From an uncultured virus (IMG/VR IMGVR_UViG_3300042564_001198) (lineage: Duplodnaviria; Heunggongvirae; Uroviricota; Caudoviricetes), in the IMG/VR virus record IMGVR_UViG_3300042564_001198: a stretch of DNA of 64,000 nt; one strand, 5' to 3'. How positions within the stretch are numbered: position 1 is the stretch's first letter; each line of letters begins with the position of its first letter. Below the pieces are notes generated by a model. It saw nothing but the letters and a program-made list of their open reading frames with translations. It was not told where the DNA came from and ran no database searches. The position numbers and the translations under genes were made by a program. Of the stretch, positions 3,353 to 23,315 are shown one piece after another.

Positions 3353-4651
3353 ATGATATTAGACTACAAGATTAACAAGAAATTACTACCATTTAGTGAT
3401 AAGATAAAGAATGGTTTAGTTAAATACTTAACCCAGTTCAGTGGTATAAAGATTACTAAACACAAGCTTGATTTAATAGACAAGGTGTGTAAGTGCTTTG
3501 TGTTGAACATAGCCAACGCAGTTAAGAGGAAACAGACTAAGTTCTCTGTTGCACTAGATCAGACAGTATACTCATTACCGGCTATCTACAATGGTAACAA
3601 CACAGGTAGAAAGGTTAGCTACACGTATATGAAGGTGCTGATTAACTTCATTACATCTCAGGATGATTTTAACCTCTACAAAGGTGGTGTTACCTCTTGG
3701 GAATGGGATGGTGTTATAAAGAAAGTGGTAGCTAAGACATGGGAGACAAGCTACATTGAGATCCCTGATCACTGGATTAGTGAGATAGACTCTATTGTGA
3801 ATAAGATTGATATTGTAAATGAATCAGTTCTTGAGGTAAGAGATTCTAAAGGTAATGTGTTAGCTAAACGTTTACCGGAAAGACAGAAAGAGTTAGTAAG
3901 ACTCTTAACTAAATTTAACTATAAACTTGTTGACTCTGAGTTTAGAATCGAGGATAATAAGTATTCTGTGCAAGTTAAGAAGATTTACAACAATGGTTCT
4001 TTTAACGAAGGTGGGAGGGTGTATATGTCTGGTGCAGGATTAAGTGATATGATTAATCGTGAGCAACGTATTAAACTGGAAATAAACGGAGAACCTACAG
4101 TTGAGTGCGATTATGGACAATTGTTTCCTCGGATTGCCGCTGATTTAGTTGGTGTTACACTGGATAAGTCCTTTGACCCGTATGGAATCACTATATCAGG
4201 TTATAAACCTTCTGTGGTACGTTCATTGGCTAAGGTTGGTCTGATGTGTTTATTCAACTGTAAAGACGAAGAAGGTGCTACGTTTGCTCTAATCAAAGAA
4301 ATGAACCAGAAGTGGTTGAAAGAACAGATTGACCAAGCGAAGGACGAAGGTCAATGGCCTGACTTCCCTGTAGCAAGACGTGTTGTGGAAGCATTACTTG
4401 AAAGAAATGATTATGTGAACACGTATTTCTTTAGTGATAGTGCATTAGACCTCATGGCTATAGAATCTACGATGATGGATTATATTATTGAACGTGTGTT
4501 GTCTGACGACCAGATCATGATCCCAATACATGATAGTATCATTGTTCAGGAGAAATACAAGGATAAGGCAGTGAAGATTATGGAACGTGCTTACGAAGTG
4601 GTTGTTGGTGGGAATAATTGTGTTGTTAGAACGAAAGGTGCTGAGCTATGA
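3353..4651 (+). CDS. Compact, divergent family-A-polymerase / single-subunit-RNAP-fold protein
   Basis: GGRVY, motif A-like VECDYGQLFPRI, motif B-like RSLAKVGL, motif C-like PIHDSIIV in the correct order; no exonuclease motifs. Confidence 0.6.
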   Translation: MILDYKINKKLLPFSDKIKNGLVKYLTQFSGIKITKHKLDLIDKVCKCFVLNIANAVKRKQTKFSVALDQTVYSLPAIYNGNNTGRKVSYTYMKVLINFITSQDDFNLYKGGVTSWEWDGVIKKVVAKTWETSYIEIPDHWISEIDSIVNKIDIVNESVLEVRDSKGNVLAKRLPERQKELVRLLTKFNYKLVDSEFRIEDNKYSVQVKKIYNNGSFNEGGRVYMSGAGLSDMINREQRIKLEINGEPTVECDYGQLFPRIAADLVGVTLDKSFDPYGITISGYKPSVVRSLAKVGLMCLFNCKDEEGATFALIKEMNQKWLKEQIDQAKDEGQWPDFPVARRVVEALLERNDYVNTYFFSDSALDLMAIESTMMDYIIERVLSDDQIMIPIHDSIIVQEKYKDKAVKIMERAYEVVVGGNNCVVRTKGAEL

Positions 4652-4878: not shown

Positions 4879-4903
4879 AAGCCCAGCATTCGCTGGGCTT
4901 TTT
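4879..4903 (+). terminator. Intrinsic terminator (23-nt identical copy at 5761)
   Basis: GCCCAGC-ATTC-GCTGGGC + T-tract. Confidence 0.85.
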
Positions 4904-5760: not shown

Positions 5761-5788
5761 AAGCCCAGCATTCGCTGGGCTTTCTTTT
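5761..5788 (+). terminator. Intrinsic terminator
   Basis: Same GCCCAGC-ATTC-GCTGGGC hairpin + T-rich tail. Confidence 0.85.
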
Positions 5789-6792: not shown

Positions 6793-6802
6793 GGAGAGAT
6801 TT

Positions 6803-7197
6803 ATTACACGTATAAACACCGTAGAACCAGTAGAGTTGGCCAGACAACATTTACTTGCCGAATACGTGAATTACCCCGTGTATTCACTCTTGTAAAGAAT
6901 TGGAAAGGTACTGGTGTAAATTACTACAACTTCAAACGTCTGAAGAAACAACCACAAGAGTATACGCTTGGTACAGGACACATGACTCATTTCGCTGATA
7001 AGTTACAATGGCTCGCTGATAGATACGAATTACTGTGTGGTGAGTGGCGTAATCGTGGATATAAAATTCAGCAAGTAGAACGTAAAGATTTAATTGAAGG
7101 TATTGACAATAAATTCTTAGGTGGGTATACTGTTACACAAGAAGCATTGCGATTAAACCGTGAACGTATAGCAGAAAGATTTGGAGACAAACAATGA
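6803..7197 (+). pseudogene. denV: T4 endonuclease V-like pyrimidine dimer DNA glycosylase, frameshifted and with ATT in place of ATG
   Basis: AAGGAG RBS, then (ATT)TRINTVEPVELARQHLLAE, a one-base deletion near 6863-6866, then RELPRVF...YTLGTGHMTHFADKLQWL..RY..L..EW.NRGY, colinear with T4 DenV. Confidence 0.85.
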
Positions 7198-7409
7198 AAT
7201 TTAAATGTATTGAAGATTTCTGGATGCTCAATGAATCTGAGGAAAGTGGGAATATTCCAGCGTTTAAGGCTGGAGATGTGTATGATTTCTACGTAGGAAA
7301 AGAATCTGCCTACGTCCCTGAGCTGTATACACCTAAAAACAATCAACAATCTTGTCATTACATGTATAAGAGTGTTGTTGATGAACATTTTATTCAAGTG
7401 GAGGAGTAA
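7194..7409 (+). CDS. Hypothetical protein
   Basis: 71 aa, GGAG RBS, ATGA overlap. Confidence 0.75.
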   Translation: MKFKCIEDFWMLNESEESGNIPAFKAGDVYDFYVGKESAYVPELYTPKNNQQSCHYMYKSVVDEHFIQVEE

Positions 7410-7413
7410 CAAA

Positions 7414-8466
7414 TTGATAAAAACATTAAAGTTCAGGGTGAAAGATAAACACATTAAACATTTGAATAAGGTTGCAGCTAATGTGAATTTTGTCTGGAAC
7501 TATATCAATGAACTTAGCTCACGCTCAATCAAAGAGCGTGGGGTGTTTTTATCCGAATTTGATATAAACAAATACACAGCAGGTTCAAGTAAAGAGCTTG
7601 GGATTCCTGCTCAAACAATACAAGAAGTAAGTAAAGAGTATGTCACCCGACGTAGGCAATTTAAGAAACGTCGACTACGTTGGAGGAAAACCAAAGGAAG
7701 TGGTAGATCGTTAGGTTGGATTCCTTTTCAACCACAAACAATTAAGTTGGTTGATAGTAAAATTAGATTTAATAGTGTTTTGTTTAGCTTTTGGGATTGT
7801 CATAATATATCGCAATACAAACTTAAATCAGGTTCATTTAACGAAGATTCTAAAGGTCGGTGGTATCTTAACATTGCTGTTGAATGCGAGGCTGTAAAAT
7901 CTAAGGGAACTCAGTTAATCGGTATAGATTTAGGTTGTAAAGATGCTGCTGTGACATCAACAGGAATAAAGCTTGACAATGGTTGGTATCGTGAGTTAGA
8001 ATCTAAGCTCAAATTAGCGCAAAGAGCTAATAAGAAAGACAGAGTGAGGTCGATTCACTTAAAGATAAAGAATAGACGTAAGGACGCTATTCATAAGTTT
8101 ACACGCAGTTTGGTAGATTCCAGTGCTGCAATCTTTGTTGGTAACATTAGTTCTCGGAAGCTTATTAAAACTAAAATGGCAAAATCTGTTTTAGACGCTT
8201 CTTGGGGACAGATTAAATCTACATTGGAATATAAATGCGCTAACGCAGGTGTGATTTTTGAAGTTATTAATGAAGCATACTCCACCCAGACTTGTTCGTG
8301 CTGCGGGATTATCCCAGACAGTAGTCCGAAAGGTAGAGCAGGTCTTGGAATACGGCAATGGGTTTGTTCTGAGTGCGGAGCAGAACACGATAGGGATGTG
8401 AATGCGTCTAAGAACATTGCTGCGGCGGGGCACCGCCGTCTTGAAGAAGGAATTCTCCTTGATTAG
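7414..8466 (+). CDS. tnpB: TnpB-family RNA-guided endonuclease, no transposase nearby
   Basis: VWNY, IGIDLG (RuvC-I), CSCC/CSEC Zn ribbon, HDRDVNASKNI (RuvC-III); likely TTG start at 7414 behind GGAGGAG. Confidence 0.92.
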   Translation: MIKTLKFRVKDKHIKHLNKVAANVNFVWNYINELSSRSIKERGVFLSEFDINKYTAGSSKELGIPAQTIQEVSKEYVTRRRQFKKRRLRWRKTKGSGRSLGWIPFQPQTIKLVDSKIRFNSVLFSFWDCHNISQYKLKSGSFNEDSKGRWYLNIAVECEAVKSKGTQLIGIDLGCKDAAVTSTGIKLDNGWYRELESKLKLAQRANKKDRVRSIHLKIKNRRKDAIHKFTRSLVDSSAAIFVGNISSRKLIKTKMAKSVLDASWGQIKSTLEYKCANAGVIFEVINEAYSTQTCSCCGIIPDSSPKGRAGLGIRQWVCSECGAEHDRDVNASKNIAAAGHRRLEEGILLD

Positions 8467-8500
8467 AGGAGAAGGGTGTCATAACAGAAAGAACAGTTAG
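8400..8500 (+). ncRNA. Predicted TnpB omega/reRNA 3' scaffold, right end and guide (5' limit uncertain)
   Basis: GCGGCGGGGCACCGCCG hairpin, then GGAATTCTCCTT-GATTAG-AGGAGAA-GGGTG-TCAT, resembling IS200/IS605 right ends; guide predicted from 8483. Confidence 0.6.
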
Positions 8501-8531
8501 CTAATGTTGAGAAAGAATTGGAGGAATTGAA

Positions 8532-8741
8532 ATGAAGAATTTAGCTTATAGTACAGTGTTTTTTCTAATTATGAACGTGATGGTTGCTATCATCATGGCT
8601 GTATCAGGATTTAACTTTACGTTCCCTAATCCAGATATTCCTGAAGTGCATGGATATTATCTGTGGTATGGATGTTTTGAGTTTATTGTCGTGTTAGGTA
8701 CATTGTTGTTTGCTGAACACATTTGGAACAAGAATGATTGA
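8532..8741 (+). CDS. Small membrane protein
   Basis: Two hydrophobic segments, GGAGG RBS. Confidence 0.75.
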   Translation: MKNLAYSTVFFLIMNVMVAIIMAVSGFNFTFPNPDIPEVHGYYLWYGCFEFIVVLGTLLFAEHIWNKND

Positions 8742-8970
8742 TTTCAACAGCTTGCCAGAAATATTACAGAAGTTCTTGACAGAACTGAACAAGCAGTATA
8801 AGATTGCTGCCATATCTGCTGTGGATGGTGATGGTGCTTACAAAGAGTATCAGGTGGCCTGTAAAGGTAAAGTGTTTTATATTTACCACCATCTAATCAA
8901 AGATGAGTGGACATGGAAAGAACGTGGTAGTATGAGCTTTCCTAAACAATTGATGATTGAGGAGAAATGA
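8734..8970 (+). CDS. Hypothetical protein
   Basis: ORF track 8710-8970; internal ATG preferred. Confidence 0.7.
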   Translation: MIDFNSLPEILQKFLTELNKQYKIAAISAVDGDGAYKEYQVACKGKVFYIYHHLIKDEWTWKERGSMSFPKQLMIEEK

Positions 8971-8971
8971 T

Positions 8972-9415
8972 ATGGGGATGTATACCGAAATTTTTGTGAA
9001 TGTTGATTTGAAACAAGACATCCCTGAAGATGTGTTGTATGTCTTGAAAGGGATGGTTCGAAGTGTTAAGGAAAAGAGTAACTATCACCACCTACCCTTC
9101 AATCATTCTGATGTTGACACAGATGATGCTAAGTTCGTAGAATTAACATCAAAGTTTAGTAACAGATTTCCTTGGTTGTTTTGTAATGGTTCTTACTACA
9201 CACCAAACACAACAGTTGCTGAACTTTCGTATGACTTCATTTCAGAGAGCTGGTCGTTGTTAGGTAAAGGTGACATTAAAAACTACGATGGTGAGATTCA
9301 ACAGTTCTTTGAATGGATTGCTCCTTACTCAGATACAGAATTCTTAGGGTATTCTCGATACGAAGAATGTGATGAACCAACATTGTATTACCGTAAAGAT
9401 TTCTCAGGAGAATAA
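8972..9415 (+). CDS. Conserved phage hypothetical protein
   Basis: MGMYTE...IKNYDGEIQQF...GYSRYEE; GAGGAG RBS. Confidence 0.8.
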   Translation: MGMYTEIFVNVDLKQDIPEDVLYVLKGMVRSVKEKSNYHHLPFNHSDVDTDDAKFVELTSKFSNRFPWLFCNGSYYTPNTTVAELSYDFISESWSLLGKGDIKNYDGEIQQFFEWIAPYSDTEFLGYSRYEECDEPTLYYRKDFSGE

Positions 9416-9586: not shown

Positions 9587-9874
9587 ATGACCATTGAACA
9601 AAAACGTCAACAGATTCTTGACATCTTAGAATATTTCGGATTTGAAACGGTATTCAGTAATGAGATATTCTCCGTAACAGTAGGAGACAGTGTATATGGT
9701 ACTTGTCAGATAAATTATCAGTACGGTAAACATGGTGGCTATTTCTCTATACTTGAGTCAAAGAATGGCAATGCTTACGATTTCAATCTATCAGGTATTC
9801 GTAGTAATGACTTTGAGAAAGTGAAGGGTGCATTCTGGTTGTATTGTAAATTGGTTAAGGAGTATTGCAGTTGA
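9587..9874 (+). CDS. Hypothetical protein
   Basis: 95 aa ORF. Confidence 0.7.
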   Translation: MTIEQKRQQILDILEYFGFETVFSNEIFSVTVGDSVYGTCQINYQYGKHGGYFSILESKNGNAYDFNLSGIRSNDFEKVKGAFWLYCKLVKEYCS

Positions 9875-11745
9875 GTAAAGATAGTGGGGATTTTGTAGGA
9901 CATTTCCACTGCATAGGTAGTGAGTGTTCTAATAAACATGACTGTCATAGCAGTGACGGGTTAGCGATTTATCAACACACAGATGAAAACGATGTAGTCA
10001 CGTATGACGGGTTTTGTTGGTCATGTAGCCAATATTATTCATCTACGGATATTGGTAACTCATCTATTGCTGGAGATTTGGGGATCGAAGGTGGAGTTGT
10101 AGTAAACGCAAACAAAGTTACCGCTAAGCCTAAAAAAGAACCTATGACTAAAGATGAAGTCATCAACTTCATTAAAGAAATTGGTTACATTGGTAATGGT
10201 ATTCGTGGTATAAAAGATGAGTATAACCAATTCTACGGGCATTTAACTAAACTTGATAATGAAGGTAATCCCGTAGTCCGGTTCTATCCTGAAACTTCCG
10301 AAGGCAAAGTTACTGGGTATAAATCCAGAATCTTCCCAAAGAAATTCGGTATGTTGAACAAAGGTCGTACAGGAATTAAGTCTGAGTTATCTGGTCAGGT
10401 AAAGTTTAAAGCTGGTGGTAAGTATTTACTTATTTGCGGCGGAGAGGAAGATAAGGTAGCCGCATTCCAGATGCTACGTGACAATCAAATTAAACGGGGG
10501 CAGAAAGACTTTGAACCTATCGCGGTAGTTAGCCCTACTACGGGGGAAGGTAGTGCAGTAAAGCAGATTGCAGCTCAGTATGACTTCTGTAATTTATTCG
10601 AGAATATTATCTTAGGTTTAGATAACGATGATGTAGGTAAAGAAGCTATGGCAGAGATTGCCAAAGTATTGCCAGCAGATAAAGTAAAAATTGCATTGTG
10701 GACTATGAAAGACCCTAACAAGATGTTAGAATCTGGAAAGCAAGAGCAGTTTGTGCGAGACTTCTTCAGTGCAAAACCTTATCTCGATGACGGTATTATT
10801 TCCTCTATTGATGCAGATGATGGGTTGGAATCGGAGTTATCCAGACCTAAGATTAAGTTACCAGAGTTTATGTCTGATTTACAAAAAGCATTCTCAGGTG
10901 GAATCCCATTAGGTTATTGGGTAAACTGGATCGCTGGGACAGGCGCTGGTAAAACTACTACGGTTAACGAAGCCATTCGTGAATGGATTTATACTTCACC
11001 CTATAAGGTTGGGATCGTTAGTCTAGAGTTAACTGCTGCACAGTATATGATTGCAATGCTGAGCCGTGAGGTTGGGTATAAAATTAACTTGATTGATTCC
11101 CCAGAAAAAGCTGTAGAGTTTATCAGACAACCTCATGTAGTAGAAGCACGTAATCATTTAAAGATGAACGAGTTCGGAGAAGAACGTTTTGCGTTGTTAG
11201 ATGATCGGGAAGGCAGTCTTGACAATGTTAAGAAACAAATTGAACGGCTGATTAAGAAACATGGCTGTCAGTTGATCGTTATAGACCCGCTTAACGATTT
11301 GTTTGATGCTTCTACATGGGATGAACAGACAGCATTTATCAAATGGATGAAGACCATGCTGAAATCCGGTATTACATTCTCTTGTGTTTGTCACGTAAGA
11401 AAAGGTAATGTATCTACAGATAAACACGGTAAGCGTATTGAACGAGAGCTTACGGAAGATGACGTGTCGGGCTTGTCGCTCGTAACAAAAAGTGCGGGGG
11501 CTAATATTTTCTTAAATCGTTCAAAATACGCAGAAGATCCTATAGTTCAAAACACAACTAAAGTAACATTAGGTAAGTGTCGTTGGACAGGGGTAACGGG
11601 TGTAGTTGGAAGTTGGTATTATGACTTGCAAACACACACAATGCACAATTATAATACATTCTTTAATCAACAGCCACCAGACTTTACGGATAATTATTAT
11701 CCCGCTGGTGAAGATGATGAAATAGACGTAACCAATCTTTTCTAA
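9865..11745 (+). CDS. DNA primase-helicase (T7 gp4-like)
   Basis: Cys-rich Zn domain, TOPRIM (GGEED, LDNDDVG, KDPN), Walker A GTGAGKTT, SLE, IVIDP, KCRWTG. Confidence 0.93.
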   Translation: MQLSKDSGDFVGHFHCIGSECSNKHDCHSSDGLAIYQHTDENDVVTYDGFCWSCSQYYSSTDIGNSSIAGDLGIEGGVVVNANKVTAKPKKEPMTKDEVINFIKEIGYIGNGIRGIKDEYNQFYGHLTKLDNEGNPVVRFYPETSEGKVTGYKSRIFPKKFGMLNKGRTGIKSELSGQVKFKAGGKYLLICGGEEDKVAAFQMLRDNQIKRGQKDFEPIAVVSPTTGEGSAVKQIAAQYDFCNLFENIILGLDNDDVGKEAMAEIAKVLPADKVKIALWTMKDPNKMLESGKQEQFVRDFFSAKPYLDDGIISSIDADDGLESELSRPKIKLPEFMSDLQKAFSGGIPLGYWVNWIAGTGAGKTTTVNEAIREWIYTSPYKVGIVSLELTAAQYMIAMLSREVGYKINLIDSPEKAVEFIRQPHVVEARNHLKMNEFGEERFALLDDREGSLDNVKKQIERLIKKHGCQLIVIDPLNDLFDASTWDEQTAFIKWMKTMLKSGITFSCVCHVRKGNVSTDKHGKRIERELTEDDVSGLSLVTKSAGANIFLNRSKYAEDPIVQNTTKVTLGKCRWTGVTGVVGSWYYDLQTHTMHNYNTFFNQQPPDFTDNYYPAGEDDEIDVTNLF

Positions 11746-11753
11746 GGAGATTT

Positions 11754-14225
11754 ATGTTAGAGTATCGCAATTTAAAATTAGCCAGTGATATAGAAGCAAA
11801 GGGTTTCTATGATGTAGTAAATTCTAAAGAGGATATTCACTGTCTGTGTTCTGTTGATATTGACACAGGTAAAGTGATACTCTTTCATAATAACCCTGAG
11901 TTTGATAATGTAGTTGTTGTAGATCCTTACGACAATAAAGAGTACACAATACCTAAACGTTCAGGTACATTGGATGAAGGTATTGCATTTTGGAGTAATG
12001 CAGCAAATAACGGTAGCTTGCTAATTATCCATAACTGTCATACATATGACAGACCAGTTATTGATAAGATTTGGCCGGAGAATACAATACCTTTTGATAG
12101 TTACCATGATACGTTTATCCAGAGTAAACTACAGTGGTTTGAACGTCCTTGCCCTAAAGGTGCAAAATCTCCACATGGGTTAAAAGCTTGGGGTATTAAG
12201 TGCGGGATTAATAAACCAGAGATCACTGATTGGTCTACAATGGATGCTTTCAAATTACACAGGGTTATTGAAGACTGTAAGATCCAAGCGCAAACATATT
12301 TGATGTTAGAGAAGGAACGTAACTACTTACGAGACACCTACGGTATTGATTTTACCTACGCTCTTAAAGTAGAAGCGTTGTACGCACATGAATGTTTTCT
12401 ACAAGAAACCACAGGTGTTATGGTAGATATTGACCATATCAAACGCTGCATTGATGACTTGGATATTAAGATTGAAGTATTACGTGCGGAGATTGAACCA
12501 CAACTACCACCTACGATTAAAGGTGCTACAACAAAAGTATCTCGTAAAGAGATGGCAGAGTTGTTTGGTTTTGATTCAAGTAAGATTGTAGAATCTACAT
12601 CTCAAAGGAAGAAAGATGGTGAAGTGGTTACAGTAGTAGATAAACCTTATTATAAACCTACTATTAACTTTACTTCTAAGGAGAAGGTAAACCAATACTA
12701 CGGGTTTAATTTATCTTACGGCGCTACACCAGTATTCAATAAGAAGAAAGATTTAACTGATTGGATTAAAGCAAGTTACCCAGAGACTAAGAACAAAGAC
12801 TGGGATATTGAAAAGAAAGAAGTGGTAACTGAAGTTATTAACTCACATACATGCAATTGGTTTGGAGTAGAACCTACAGATACGCATATTATTTCTGGGC
12901 CATTTACACGTATCGAGATTGAACCGTCTACCATGACACAATCCGATATAGTGAAAGCGTTTTTAATTAAACTTGGTTGGAAGGATGCGGATTCTTGGAA
13001 CATACGGAAAGATGCTTATGACAATTGGATTAAAGCAGAACAAGATGTAGAGGTACGGTGGCCTGAAAAGGCGTTACCGGAACATCAGTTAGTTAAGTTT
13101 GTTAAGAAAGGCGAATACTTGGTTAGTAGTCCTAAATTAACTGACGATGATTACGACCAGCTCCCAGAAGGTTTAGGTAAAAAGATCGCGGAGTATAACA
13201 CGTATCAACACAGACGTAGATTCTTAGAAAATCCGGAAGACCCTGAGAATAAAGGATTGTTAAGCTATGTCCGTGAGGATGGGCGTATTCCAGCAGGAGT
13301 TAATAATTTCGCTACTCGTAGTGGCCGTGGTGCCCAGAGGATTTGGGTTAATGCCCCTTCAGATAGCGCTTTGTATGGTAAAGAAATTAGACAGAGTGTT
13401 ATTTGTCCTAAAGGTAAAGTATTGGTAGGTATTGATATGAAGTCTGCACAGTTATCCATTGCAGCGTATTATGCTAATAACTATGAATACTATAATAACG
13501 TAGCTTCTGGAATGGAGTATTCAGAAGATGGTAAATATTTAGGACAGACAGCACACTGTGTAAACGCTCGTATGTTCGGCATGGTGTCAGAAGTGGATTG
13601 GCAATCTGCTGTGGAGACTCAAGATAAAGAGTTAATCCACAAAATAACCTTGAAACGTAAGGCAAGCAAGGGTGGTAGTTTCGCTGTAATCTTCGGTGCA
13701 TCAGGTAAGAAGGTGGCTAAAACTATTGGAATCCCTGAGAAAGAAGGTGCTAAACGTAAAGACCAGTTCTTAAAACAGATGGGTCTTGACAACACGATTA
13801 AAGCATTGTCTTTGTATGAAGATAAATTCAAGTACAAGGGTGGTTTCTATTTACCATTAGCCTTTGGGTATTGGTTATGGAATAACAGTAGCCATAAGAG
13901 TGTTAACACCATCGTTCAGGGTTTTGAAGCTTTAGCTCAGAAAATGGCAGCAATCCGTTTAGGTAAAGAGTTAGACAGGTTAGGTTTACGTAATCATATT
14001 AAACGTGTATTAGACGTGCATGACGAAACTTTATTAGAAGTTTCAATAGGTTACGAGGAACAGGCAGGTAAACTTGGAGGTTCTTGTTACACTTGGGCTG
14101 CTGAGCAGATATTCAAGTATCACAGAAAAACTCCTGAACACTTTGCTAACCACACACCACCACAGTTCGCTATTGACCTCAATGGAGGTTATAAAGTGGG
14201 TGAAAATTATTATGATGTCCACTAA
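11754..14225 (+). CDS. Family A DNA polymerase with 3'-5' exonuclease
   Basis: SDIEA exo I, TRSGR, motif A GIDMKSAQL, motif B RKASKGGSFAVIFG, motif C VHDE. Confidence 0.95.
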   Translation: MLEYRNLKLASDIEAKGFYDVVNSKEDIHCLCSVDIDTGKVILFHNNPEFDNVVVVDPYDNKEYTIPKRSGTLDEGIAFWSNAANNGSLLIIHNCHTYDRPVIDKIWPENTIPFDSYHDTFIQSKLQWFERPCPKGAKSPHGLKAWGIKCGINKPEITDWSTMDAFKLHRVIEDCKIQAQTYLMLEKERNYLRDTYGIDFTYALKVEALYAHECFLQETTGVMVDIDHIKRCIDDLDIKIEVLRAEIEPQLPPTIKGATTKVSRKEMAELFGFDSSKIVESTSQRKKDGEVVTVVDKPYYKPTINFTSKEKVNQYYGFNLSYGATPVFNKKKDLTDWIKASYPETKNKDWDIEKKEVVTEVINSHTCNWFGVEPTDTHIISGPFTRIEIEPSTMTQSDIVKAFLIKLGWKDADSWNIRKDAYDNWIKAEQDVEVRWPEKALPEHQLVKFVKKGEYLVSSPKLTDDDYDQLPEGLGKKIAEYNTYQHRRRFLENPEDPENKGLLSYVREDGRIPAGVNNFATRSGRGAQRIWVNAPSDSALYGKEIRQSVICPKGKVLVGIDMKSAQLSIAAYYANNYEYYNNVASGMEYSEDGKYLGQTAHCVNARMFGMVSEVDWQSAVETQDKELIHKITLKRKASKGGSFAVIFGASGKKVAKTIGIPEKEGAKRKDQFLKQMGLDNTIKALSLYEDKFKYKGGFYLPLAFGYWLWNNSSHKSVNTIVQGFEALAQKMAAIRLGKELDRLGLRNHIKRVLDVHDETLLEVSIGYEEQAGKLGGSCYTWAAEQIFKYHRKTPEHFANHTPPQFAIDLNGGYKVGENYYDVH

Positions 14226-22610: not shown

Positions 22611-23315
22611 ATGAGTGAATTAAAGTTTCCGTTTAAGTTTGCTGTGTCAGGAAACACATACAACGTTGTTATGTTGGGTGATGGGTATCCAGAAGTAACT
22701 AACCTACGGACAGGGTGGTCTACTACCGTGTATAGCGAAGATGACATTATTTCCAGAATTAAAGAGGGTATTTGGAAAGTTGTTGATGAAACCGCCGAAG
22801 AACAAGACCCAGAAGTAATCATCAAGCAATCAGATGCGTTTGTGCGTATCACTCAAGAGGAATACGATTCACTGATTGACGAAATAAATATGCTTCGTGA
22901 GCTTGTTGCTGAGATTACATTAGAAACAGATTACACAGCTTTAGGTCAACAAGCATCTACCTATCGTGCATTGAATGAGAAGATGCTGAAACATCATTCT
23001 TATAAAAAAGGTGATGGTGGTTCTACACGAGAAGGTGAACTGTTGGATCAGTTAGACACCTTATTTGCTGCCTATGATAGCTTGGCGGGTAAACAGAAAG
23101 AACAACAATTCAGACCAATTTCAGAAATGACTCTTGAAGATTGGCAACAGGCTATGGAAGAAGGTTGGGAATTCTTAGACAATTATGGATATGTTAATAC
23201 TGTCACTAAGGTTACGGATGAAGTATTTTTCAGTGGTTATTGCTTTGGCTTCAGTGTCGATGGAAAACATAGCGCAGCTCCGAAAAGTTACTTCATCAAA
23301 GCTCGTATTAAATAA
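22611..23315 (+). CDS. Hypothetical protein
   Basis: 234 aa, GAGGAG RBS. Confidence 0.8.
   Translation: MSELKFPFKFAVSGNTYNVVMLGDGYPEVTNLRTGWSTTVYSEDDIISRIKEGIWKVVDETAEEQDPEVIIKQSDAFVRITQEEYDSLIDEINMLRELVAEITLETDYTALGQQASTYRALNEKMLKHHSYKKGDGGSTREGELLDQLDTLFAAYDSLAGKQKEQQFRPISEMTLEDWQQAMEEGWEFLDNYGYVNTVTKVTDEVFFSGYCFGFSVDGKHSAAPKSYFIKARIK

Follow-up and report, generated by a model that had tools for sequence, protein, structure and literature searches.

What is a transposase-less tnpB gene doing among the replication genes of a lytic phage, and could it act there as an RNA-guided nuclease against related phages? The question is raised by an uncultured member of the Caudoviricetes (IMG/VR record IMGVR_UViG_3300042564_001198), of which a stretch of 64,000 nt, hereafter the window, was analysed. 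An initial annotation, made from the letters of the window, had proposed that this tnpB is wired into a phage operon, that its predicted guide is the stump of a displaced phage gene and that it might serve as an RNA-guided homing endonuclease. To judge from its sequence, the segment 7414-8482 is the right-hand part of an insertion sequence (IS) of the IS200/IS605 type, comprising the whole of tnpB, the omega-RNA scaffold and the right end. This anatomy is secure, whereas the functional claim is not. The features on which the argument turns are listed below, with lengths of proteins in amino acids (aa).

7194..7409, + strand: up1, a 71-aa gene kept in relatives, whose last codons hold the Shine-Dalgarno sequence of tnpB
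7414..8466, + strand: tnpB, with a TTG start, 350 aa, and matches in Pfam, PHROG 506 and PDB sequences
8354..8482, + strand: omega-RNA scaffold (at least this extent), overlapping the 3' end of tnpB, from alignment A4 and RNAalifold
8483..8503, + strand: predicted guide template, formed by the flank's first 16-21 nt and identical to the intact gene of the relative L009
8483..8535, + strand: stump of a 155-aa gene, made up of the final 17 codons and lacking 12 nt after 8503 compared with relatives
8532..8741, + strand: dn1, a 69-aa membrane-like gene with 75-85% aa identity in relatives

Where does the element begin? The initial annotation had tnpB lie directly behind the upstream stop and use a GGAGGAG inside up1, and the letters bear this out: GGAGGAG at 7400-7406 and the up1 stop TAA at 7407-7409 are followed by a 4-nt spacer (CAAA) and by a frame that opens with TTG at 7414-7416, ends with TAG at 8464-8466 and has the same start residues (MIKTLK...) as close homologues. 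A crude measure, the length of upstream gaps free of open reading frames (ORFs) at 102 tnpB loci, was too noisy to rate the 4-nt spacer. In alignment A2, with four tnpB-less relatives (L008, L009, L011 and L012), the left junction falls at the start codon (~7414), where the window reads GGAGGAGTAACAAAT followed by TGATAAAA and the relatives read GGAGGAATAACAnATG followed by CCAGC. Left ends of this family measure 50-170 nt and carry a hairpin and a GATGGATAG-type box. No left end with a subterminal hairpin beside a target motif was found at the locus, homology to the tnpB-less relatives reaching the start codon, and no GATGGATAG-type box lies near 7414, the sole matches within the window being at 23184, 26380 and 54986; a MAFFT run on what lies upstream at 42 loci yielded no alignment of left ends that could be used.

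The source phage has roughly 93 kb with direct terminal repeats (DTRs), as seen in G001, a 93,434-bp DTR record that is rated complete, shares 98% of the window's sampled words and holds one copy of tnpB. Neither a Y1 transposase (Y1_Tnp, PF01797) nor a serine recombinase (Resolvase, PF00239) was found in G001, the same searches giving matches in 6 and 12, respectively, of 14 genomes as positive controls. As the copy lacks a left end and the genome a transposase, normal peel-and-paste mobilisation of the tnpB unit is excluded, as the initial annotation had held.

What remains of the right end? Homology to the tnpB-less relatives starts at 8483 (alignment A1), and the terminal motif GGGTGTCAT, ending at 8482, aligns with GGATGTCAA, the point at which likeness ends among the four copies (96% identical) of a tnpB-only element of 1.26 kb in a Psychromonas metagenome-assembled genome (MAG); on these two grounds 8482 is the element boundary, and the right junction lies between 8482 and 8483. 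The 9-mer GGATGTCAA, with at most two substitutions, is present in 130 of 169 full-length loci (exactly so in 79 of the 130), and the flanks past it are unrelated between loci. Before it stand three distal helices (8422-8428/8433-8439, 8440-8442/8447-8449 and 8453-8459/8467-8473), the last of which is a terminal hairpin of 7 pairs, so that the hairpin and terminal motif described earlier are indeed kept. RNAalifold on A4, an alignment of 48 right-end stretches (from 79 distinct ones, protein identity 51% or more), returned 28 pairs, 18 of them with compensatory changes; 96.6% of cells were paired, against 84.3% in shuffles, none of 500 shuffles reached any of the five observed measures, and slid controls paired at 32-54%. 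All three distal helices are retained in the window. The terminal hairpin is TTCTCCT/AGGAGAA in the window and CCCCGYC/GRCGGGG in most relatives, a lineage-specific set of paired changes. A search of Rfam gave no family match, its sole hit, a COG2908 RNA on the minus strand, staying below threshold (17.6 bits, gathering score 58.7), and the single-sequence fold of 8323-8502 (z = -1.56) is not informative alone. By its covariation pattern, the omega-RNA scaffold looks intact.

What did the element displace? The flank had been read as the tail of a headless ORF that supplies a ribosome-binding site and an ATGA overlap to the next gene, and the uninterrupted gene was to be sought in related phages. 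It is present in five tnpB-less IMG/VR relatives (L008, L009, L010, L011 and L012, with L015 and L012 being one contig), all of which keep the 71-aa and 69-aa genes. Four of them were aligned (L008, L009, L011 and L012), and L010, left unaligned, has blastn figures equal to those of L009. In place of tnpB, the relatives carry an 87-aa cysteine-rich gene and a 155/156-aa gene, with an optional small gene in between (70 aa in L012, 107 aa in L008), and the stop of the 155/156-aa gene overlaps the start of the 69-aa gene by ATGA. In the four aligned relatives the 155/156-aa gene ends ...LLEQKEQLAKQL(A/V)DIEKELE(S/N)LK. The window's flank at 8485-8535 reads QKEQLANVEKELEELK-stop, the last 17 codons of the same gene, and it carries GGAGGAA at 8520-8526, the ribosome-binding site of dn1, with which it shares the ATGA overlap at 8532-8535. 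The 155-aa gene had no tblastn match in isolated phages, nor did megablast of 6900-9000 give a match among them; neither tnpB nor a Y1 transposase was found in G003, a complete relative of 94.3 kb.

Over its first 21 bases the flank agrees with the intact 155-aa gene (A1) at 21/21 positions in L009, 20/21 in L012, 20/21 in L008 and 18/21 in L011, and the first 16 are identical (16/16) in three of the four aligned relatives, which upholds the proposal that the predicted guide is the stump of a displaced phage gene. The guide 16-mer has no second exact site within the window; a partial site at 23092 (13/16 from the 5' end, preceded by GGGTA) was taken as a chance match.

A detail of the stump deserves separate mention. 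Its 12-nt deletion, at 8503/8504, starts right after guide position 21, and the piece missing after 8503 lies between two TTAGCT repeats in the consensus of the relatives. This is close to the place where TnpB enzymes are reported to cut, positions 21-22 in the case of TvTnpB (PMC10530073). Slippage or end-joining after a cut would either of them yield such a 12-nt deletion.

Is the encoded nuclease alive? TnpB matches PF01385 (OrfB_IS605; E = 4.5e-08, 33.8 bits, cut-off 30.5), PF07282 (Cas12f1-like_TNB; E = 4e-24, 85 bits, cut-off 26.3), PHROG 506 over residues 1-345 (E = 8.5e-74) and, among PDB sequences, ISDra2 TnpB (E = 2e-20). An AlphaFold2 (AF2) model, with a mean predicted local distance difference test (pLDDT) score of 80.8 and a predicted template-modelling (pTM) score of 0.58, was matched by Foldseek to 8H1J (E = 3e-18, TM 0.72/0.70) and to 8IAZ (ISFba1 TnpB; TM 0.70), and the modelled fold agrees over its whole length with solved TnpBs. 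The canonical RuvC-II glutamate is absent, GTEHL of ISDra2 being aligned to VGNIS in the PDB alignment; it is replaced in all 32 family sequences, while D172, E287 and D328 are invariant in 32/32, as is G243, which is followed by N or D. The alternative E287 lies 43-44 residues past the canonical position and directly after strand 281-286 of the AF2 model, and the zinc-ribbon cysteines fall within residues 294-321. Rearranged RuvC-II sites have been described with an alternative glutamate on the next strand, some branches being found in viruses (Altae-Tran et al., PMC10691335), and with one about 45 residues away (Jiang et al., PMC10530073), and one TnpB of the rearranged class is reported to cut DNA in a manner specific for the target-adjacent motif (TAM; PMC10530073). 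On alignment evidence, the TnpB of the window belongs to this published 'rearranged' class, and because the family is large, mostly bacterial and mobile, the rearranged site is not a sign of death.

Homologues at 60-65% identity are common in Gammaproteobacteria, Betaproteobacteria and phages, and proteins P0001-P0004 and P0028 share 79-96% identity with the window's TnpB. Against the closest homologue (L176; 81% aa identity, on another contig of about 95 kb with a different neighbourhood), the ratio of non-synonymous to synonymous substitution rates (dN/dS) is 0.14. The GC content at third codon positions (GC3) is 31.9% for tnpB and 32.4% for the phage DNA polymerase gene, homologues elsewhere having 41-57% GC. 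From residues, selection and composition, the nuclease looks alive.

The L176 locus has features of its own. Its right end reads AGATGTCAT at the place aligned to GGGTGTCAT, and a consensus sigma-70-like promoter (TTGACA, 16 nt, TATAAT) stands at 2850-2877, right after the stop of its upstream gene. The proteins flanking it have no relatives among viral contigs. The lake samples themselves contain a second, diverged tnpB of this family, as shown by a 151-nt contig of run X11 that aligns to window positions 8284-8366 with 12 differences in 83 nt and has unlike ends.

Does the same arrangement occur elsewhere? Ralstonia phage Heva (NC_054960.1) and the unrelated Hyacinthe (MT740743.1) have 1,091 bp in common at 99.45% identity, beginning 2 nt ahead of the tnpB ATG and ending with the right end; the Ralstonia loci compared are L003 2987-4077, L256 2501-3591, L257 and L258. 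Heva TnpB belongs to the same family as the lake-phage TnpB, with 55% aa identity. A full Y1 tnpA stands beside the Hyacinthe tnpB (E = 7.8e-41), and none is found in Heva. The upstream DNA of Heva is phage backbone, common with the tnpB-less Alix (MT740727.1) up to CACA/TGG (ATG), and Alix has 814 bp of other DNA in place of the Heva tnpB unit. The flank of the Heva unit, and thereby its guide, consists of the small terminase gene's ribosome-binding site and start; at the same site Cimandef and Dimitile carry a different tnpB and Gamede a truncated one. By sequence comparison, two independent phage lineages present the same anatomy, a unit that runs from start codon to right end and replaces ~0.8 kb, and one of them also shows decay.

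How might such a unit have arisen, and what would it do? In the most likely history of the lake phage, an IS605-type element would have inserted close to the 155-aa gene's 3' end, and a leftward deletion or recombination at a gene boundary would then have stripped away its left end together with any tnpA, and also 0.7-1.06 kb of phage sequence (the 87-aa gene, the optional small gene and ~90% of the 155-aa gene), bringing the start codon of tnpB behind the upstream gene's ribosome-binding site. The unit would be transcribed together with the replication-module operon, and TnpB should cut its own guide RNA from the operon transcript, with the stump (8483 onward) as guide. In a co-infected cell it would cut genomes with an intact, TAM-bearing 155-aa allele. 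Here up1 is the left homology arm and dn1 with the genes after it the right one, and repair through them, templated by the tnpB+ genome, would put tnpB in place of the gene block, the outcome being homing or local marker exclusion. Our reading, held tentatively and at a little less than even confidence, is that the nuclease is active and that the unit persists as a selfish RNA-guided free-standing endonuclease gene, spreading or excluding by way of TAM-bearing alleles.

Both types of allele are present in one lake sample: run X16 holds tnpB contigs at 100% identity as well as a contig that spans from the last part of up1 to the first part of the 87-aa gene (presence is all that contigs can show, and uncovered parts say nothing). 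The tnpB stretch occurs at full word share in at least ten runs, labelled lake-water metagenomes, with the source possibly among them, and contigs of X11, X12 and X13 cover it in pieces; all 100%-identical copies of tnpB share the same context. Loose contig ends at 7229 and 8529 proved to be an unrelated contig with 19-21-nt matches and were set aside.

Several findings weigh against an active homing unit. The initial annotation had proposed to read the TAM from the bases 5' of the match; these are TCTGG in three relatives and TCTTG in L009, unlike the TT[T/A]A[T/A]C that stands at the left boundary of 13 of 14 family loci with a recognisable left-end box, 30-45 nt upstream of this GATGGATAG-type box. 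Family boundaries were read in two ways, from related copy pairs with unlike flanks and from the box; a canonical insertion, after GAATTAAT, is found in Salmonella phage LPSTLL, and exceptions are L206 (TGACC) and the Alix site (TTGACC). A TAM of the family type was seen beside the match in none of the five sampled intact alleles, which on these letters are probably not cleavable. The motif varies within the family, with at least TTTAT, TTTAA, TTCAT and TGACC among its contexts, and the window's enzyme may therefore have a TAM other than the commonest one. At the window's site TTTAT would make an in-frame TAA; TTTAA would read Leu-Leu-Lys-Gln instead of Leu-Leu-Glu-Gln, only a TTTAA-type motif fits the open frame, and since it keeps that frame open, a cleavable intact allele is conceivable. 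The identity of the flanks is modest (left 93% over 229 nt in L012, right 79-83% over ~500 nt), and a single tnpB+ lineage was found, with all copies identical and hence nothing to indicate repeated conversion. In L176 the scaffold of the guide RNA has lost its terminal hairpin (at 4030-4060) while retaining ...ATGTCAT, the selection and GC signals are possibly older than the stranding of the unit, and the phage Gamede retains only residues 184-347 of a Heva-type gene, unannotated, so such units can decay. Of the homing proposal, therefore, the intact alleles, the guide match, the intact-looking nuclease and RNA features and the co-occurrence of alleles stood, whereas the family-type TAM and repeated conversion were not seen.

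An alternative interpretation, plausible although we lean somewhat against it, is that the unit is an inert stranded remnant, an IS left behind after a deletion that perhaps folds and binds RNA, has no cleavable target, is passive and will decay. The lack of a family-type TAM in the five sampled alleles, the one clonal lineage, the truncated Gamede copy of the parallel Ralstonia unit and the hairpin loss of L176 are all consistent with such a remnant, but it sits poorly with a 350-codon frame that is open and retains D172, E287 and D328, with three distal RNA helices that are retained with compensatory changes, and with a dN/dS of 0.14 and a GC3 fully converged on the phage value. Protein variants 94-96% identical to the window's TnpB in other samples (P0001, P0002 and P0028; known from protein alone) likewise argue against inertness, and the unit replaced genes that are kept in five relatives, yet is present in at least ten lake runs (source possibly included).

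We consider it improbable that the unit has been exapted for another function, be it to process the operon transcript, to regulate the downstream gene by binding to its own flank or to exclude unrelated competitors. Its exact fusion to the operon, with neither a left end nor a promoter of its own (a promoter scan gave 18 sites against 16.0 expected and is uninformative), would suit such a role, as would a right end, GTCAT, that is one base off the family boundary motif TTCAT, and regulatory TnpB derivatives encoded by phages (TldR) are on record. The retained D172, E287 and D328, however, place this TnpB outside the nuclease-dead kind, the guide is merely the default flank, no conserved target was seen besides the stump (the 16-mer having no other exact site in the window), and no partner gene is evident. 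Continued mobility, with a host TnpA acting in trans on a cryptic left end inside the upstream gene, is very improbable: the family's partner is a Y1 TnpA, as beside the Hyacinthe copy, and tnpB-only copies do move in bacteria, as the four Psychromonas copies attest, but homology to the tnpB-less relatives reaches the start codon (A2) and the family left end, with its length, hairpin and box, is not found near 7414.

Returning to the active, selfish endonuclease gene as the preferred reading, how far can it be generalised? It is unlikely, in our estimate, though worth stating, that start-codon-to-right-end units (tnpB plus omega-RNA, without left end or transposase) are a phage-adapted mobile form that passes from one lytic phage to another in co-infection, through RNA-guided cleavage of the intact allele together with gene conversion, and overwrites whole cassettes of small genes; the lake phage and Heva would then be independent examples, and TAM-less tnpB- alleles would be resistant survivors of the drive.

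How does the lake unit compare with known systems? It has its family, fold, alternative glutamate (by alignment) and omega-RNA scaffold in common with the RIIr tnpB-only IS200/IS605 elements (IS1341/IS608-like) and TvTnpB, as described in PMC10691335 and PMC10530073, and the RIIr right end ...GGATGTCAA is counted as the same as GGGTGTCAT of the lake phage. The RIIr elements, however, keep a 50-170-nt left end after a TTTAT-like motif, whereas the lake copy starts at the start codon and lies inside an operon, replacing 0.7-1.06 kb of phage DNA. In homing by ISDra2/IS605 TnpB, as reported in PMC8612924, 10.1101/2023.03.14.532601 and PMC10690162, there is likewise a guide from the right-end flank, an element-free target and copying repair, and TnpB is reported to drive IS retention by cutting vacant sites (PMC10690162). 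In those systems, however, excision by TnpA is the trigger and the target is the sister chromosome with its TAM restored, whereas the lake phage has no TnpA, the intact gene of another phage would be its target, and the sampled alleles show no TAM. The T-even free-standing homing endonucleases SegF, SegB and Mob, in the account given by PMC13565253, resemble it in having a nuclease gene between conserved genes and a target in the nuclease-less allele near the insertion; they spread through co-infection and gene conversion with co-conversion of flanks, and the lake unit would spread likewise. Unlike in these enzymes, RNA recognition would replace protein recognition, and the self allele would be spared by a target split from its TAM rather than by point differences.

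Closest in anatomy is the Heva unit, which also runs from start codon to right end, has phage backbone up to the ATG and replaces ~0.8 kb; unlike the lake phage, its lineage has a known full IS605 with a Y1 tnpA (Hyacinthe) and consists of isolates with a known host, and a different tnpB occupies its site in Cimandef. TldR proteins have lost the nuclease residues and target host promoters. The lake TnpB, unlike TldR, keeps D172, E287 and D328 and has its own flank as guide, the likeness lying in a transposase-less tnpB homologue that is fixed in a phage genome together with a guide RNA, as TldR is described in PMC13418256.

RNA-guided homing by TnpB is known for transposons in bacterial chromosomes. 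A 2026 review (PMC13565253) cites TnpA-independent spread in plasmids and calls phage-to-phage 'non-restorative homing' theoretical, and a cyanophage preprint merely speculates on TnpB homing between phages; a full-text literature search (supplements not covered) found no experimental report of it. The virus-borne branches tabulated in the supplement of PMC10691335 may already include this clade. The locus offers a nuclease, a guide template, an exact boundary, natural intact alleles (0-3 mismatches) and natural candidate TAM variants. If the enzyme cuts any allele, phages would hold programmable homing endonucleases whose specificity is reset at every new insertion; if it does not cut, the case documents IS remnants becoming fixed in lytic-phage operons.

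IS200/IS605 elements are not expected to duplicate their target. The tnpB element of LPSTLL has a 9-nt direct repeat, AGAATTAAT, at both sides (L002 ~2907-2915 and 4096-4104), and AGAATTAAT is single in the tnpB-less SeSz-2 (L259 1992-2007).

In its wider setting, the tnpB unit stands in a long series of + strand genes that includes a primase-helicase (9865-11745) and a DNA polymerase (11754-14225), the latter with 67.5% identity to the polymerase of Alteromonas phage vB_AmeM_PT11-V22; up1 has 90% aa identity in L012. Upstream, a 272-aa gene at 5974-6792 matches DUF7487 (Pfam) as well as endonuclease and homing-endonuclease PHROGs. Directly 3' of it, at 6793-7197, lies a T4 endonuclease V-like (Pyr_excise) frame that is missing about 26 N-terminal residues and has no start codon until an internal ATG at 6982; L011 has the whole 140-aa Pyr_excise gene. 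The segment 5974-7197 may thus be a second selfish nuclease adjoining a second gene stump, 200 nt upstream of tnpB. Farther upstream, two identical 22-nt terminator-like hairpins, AAGCCCAGC-ATTC-GCTGGGCTT, stand 882 nt apart at 4879-4900 and 5761-5782, each followed by a T-run.

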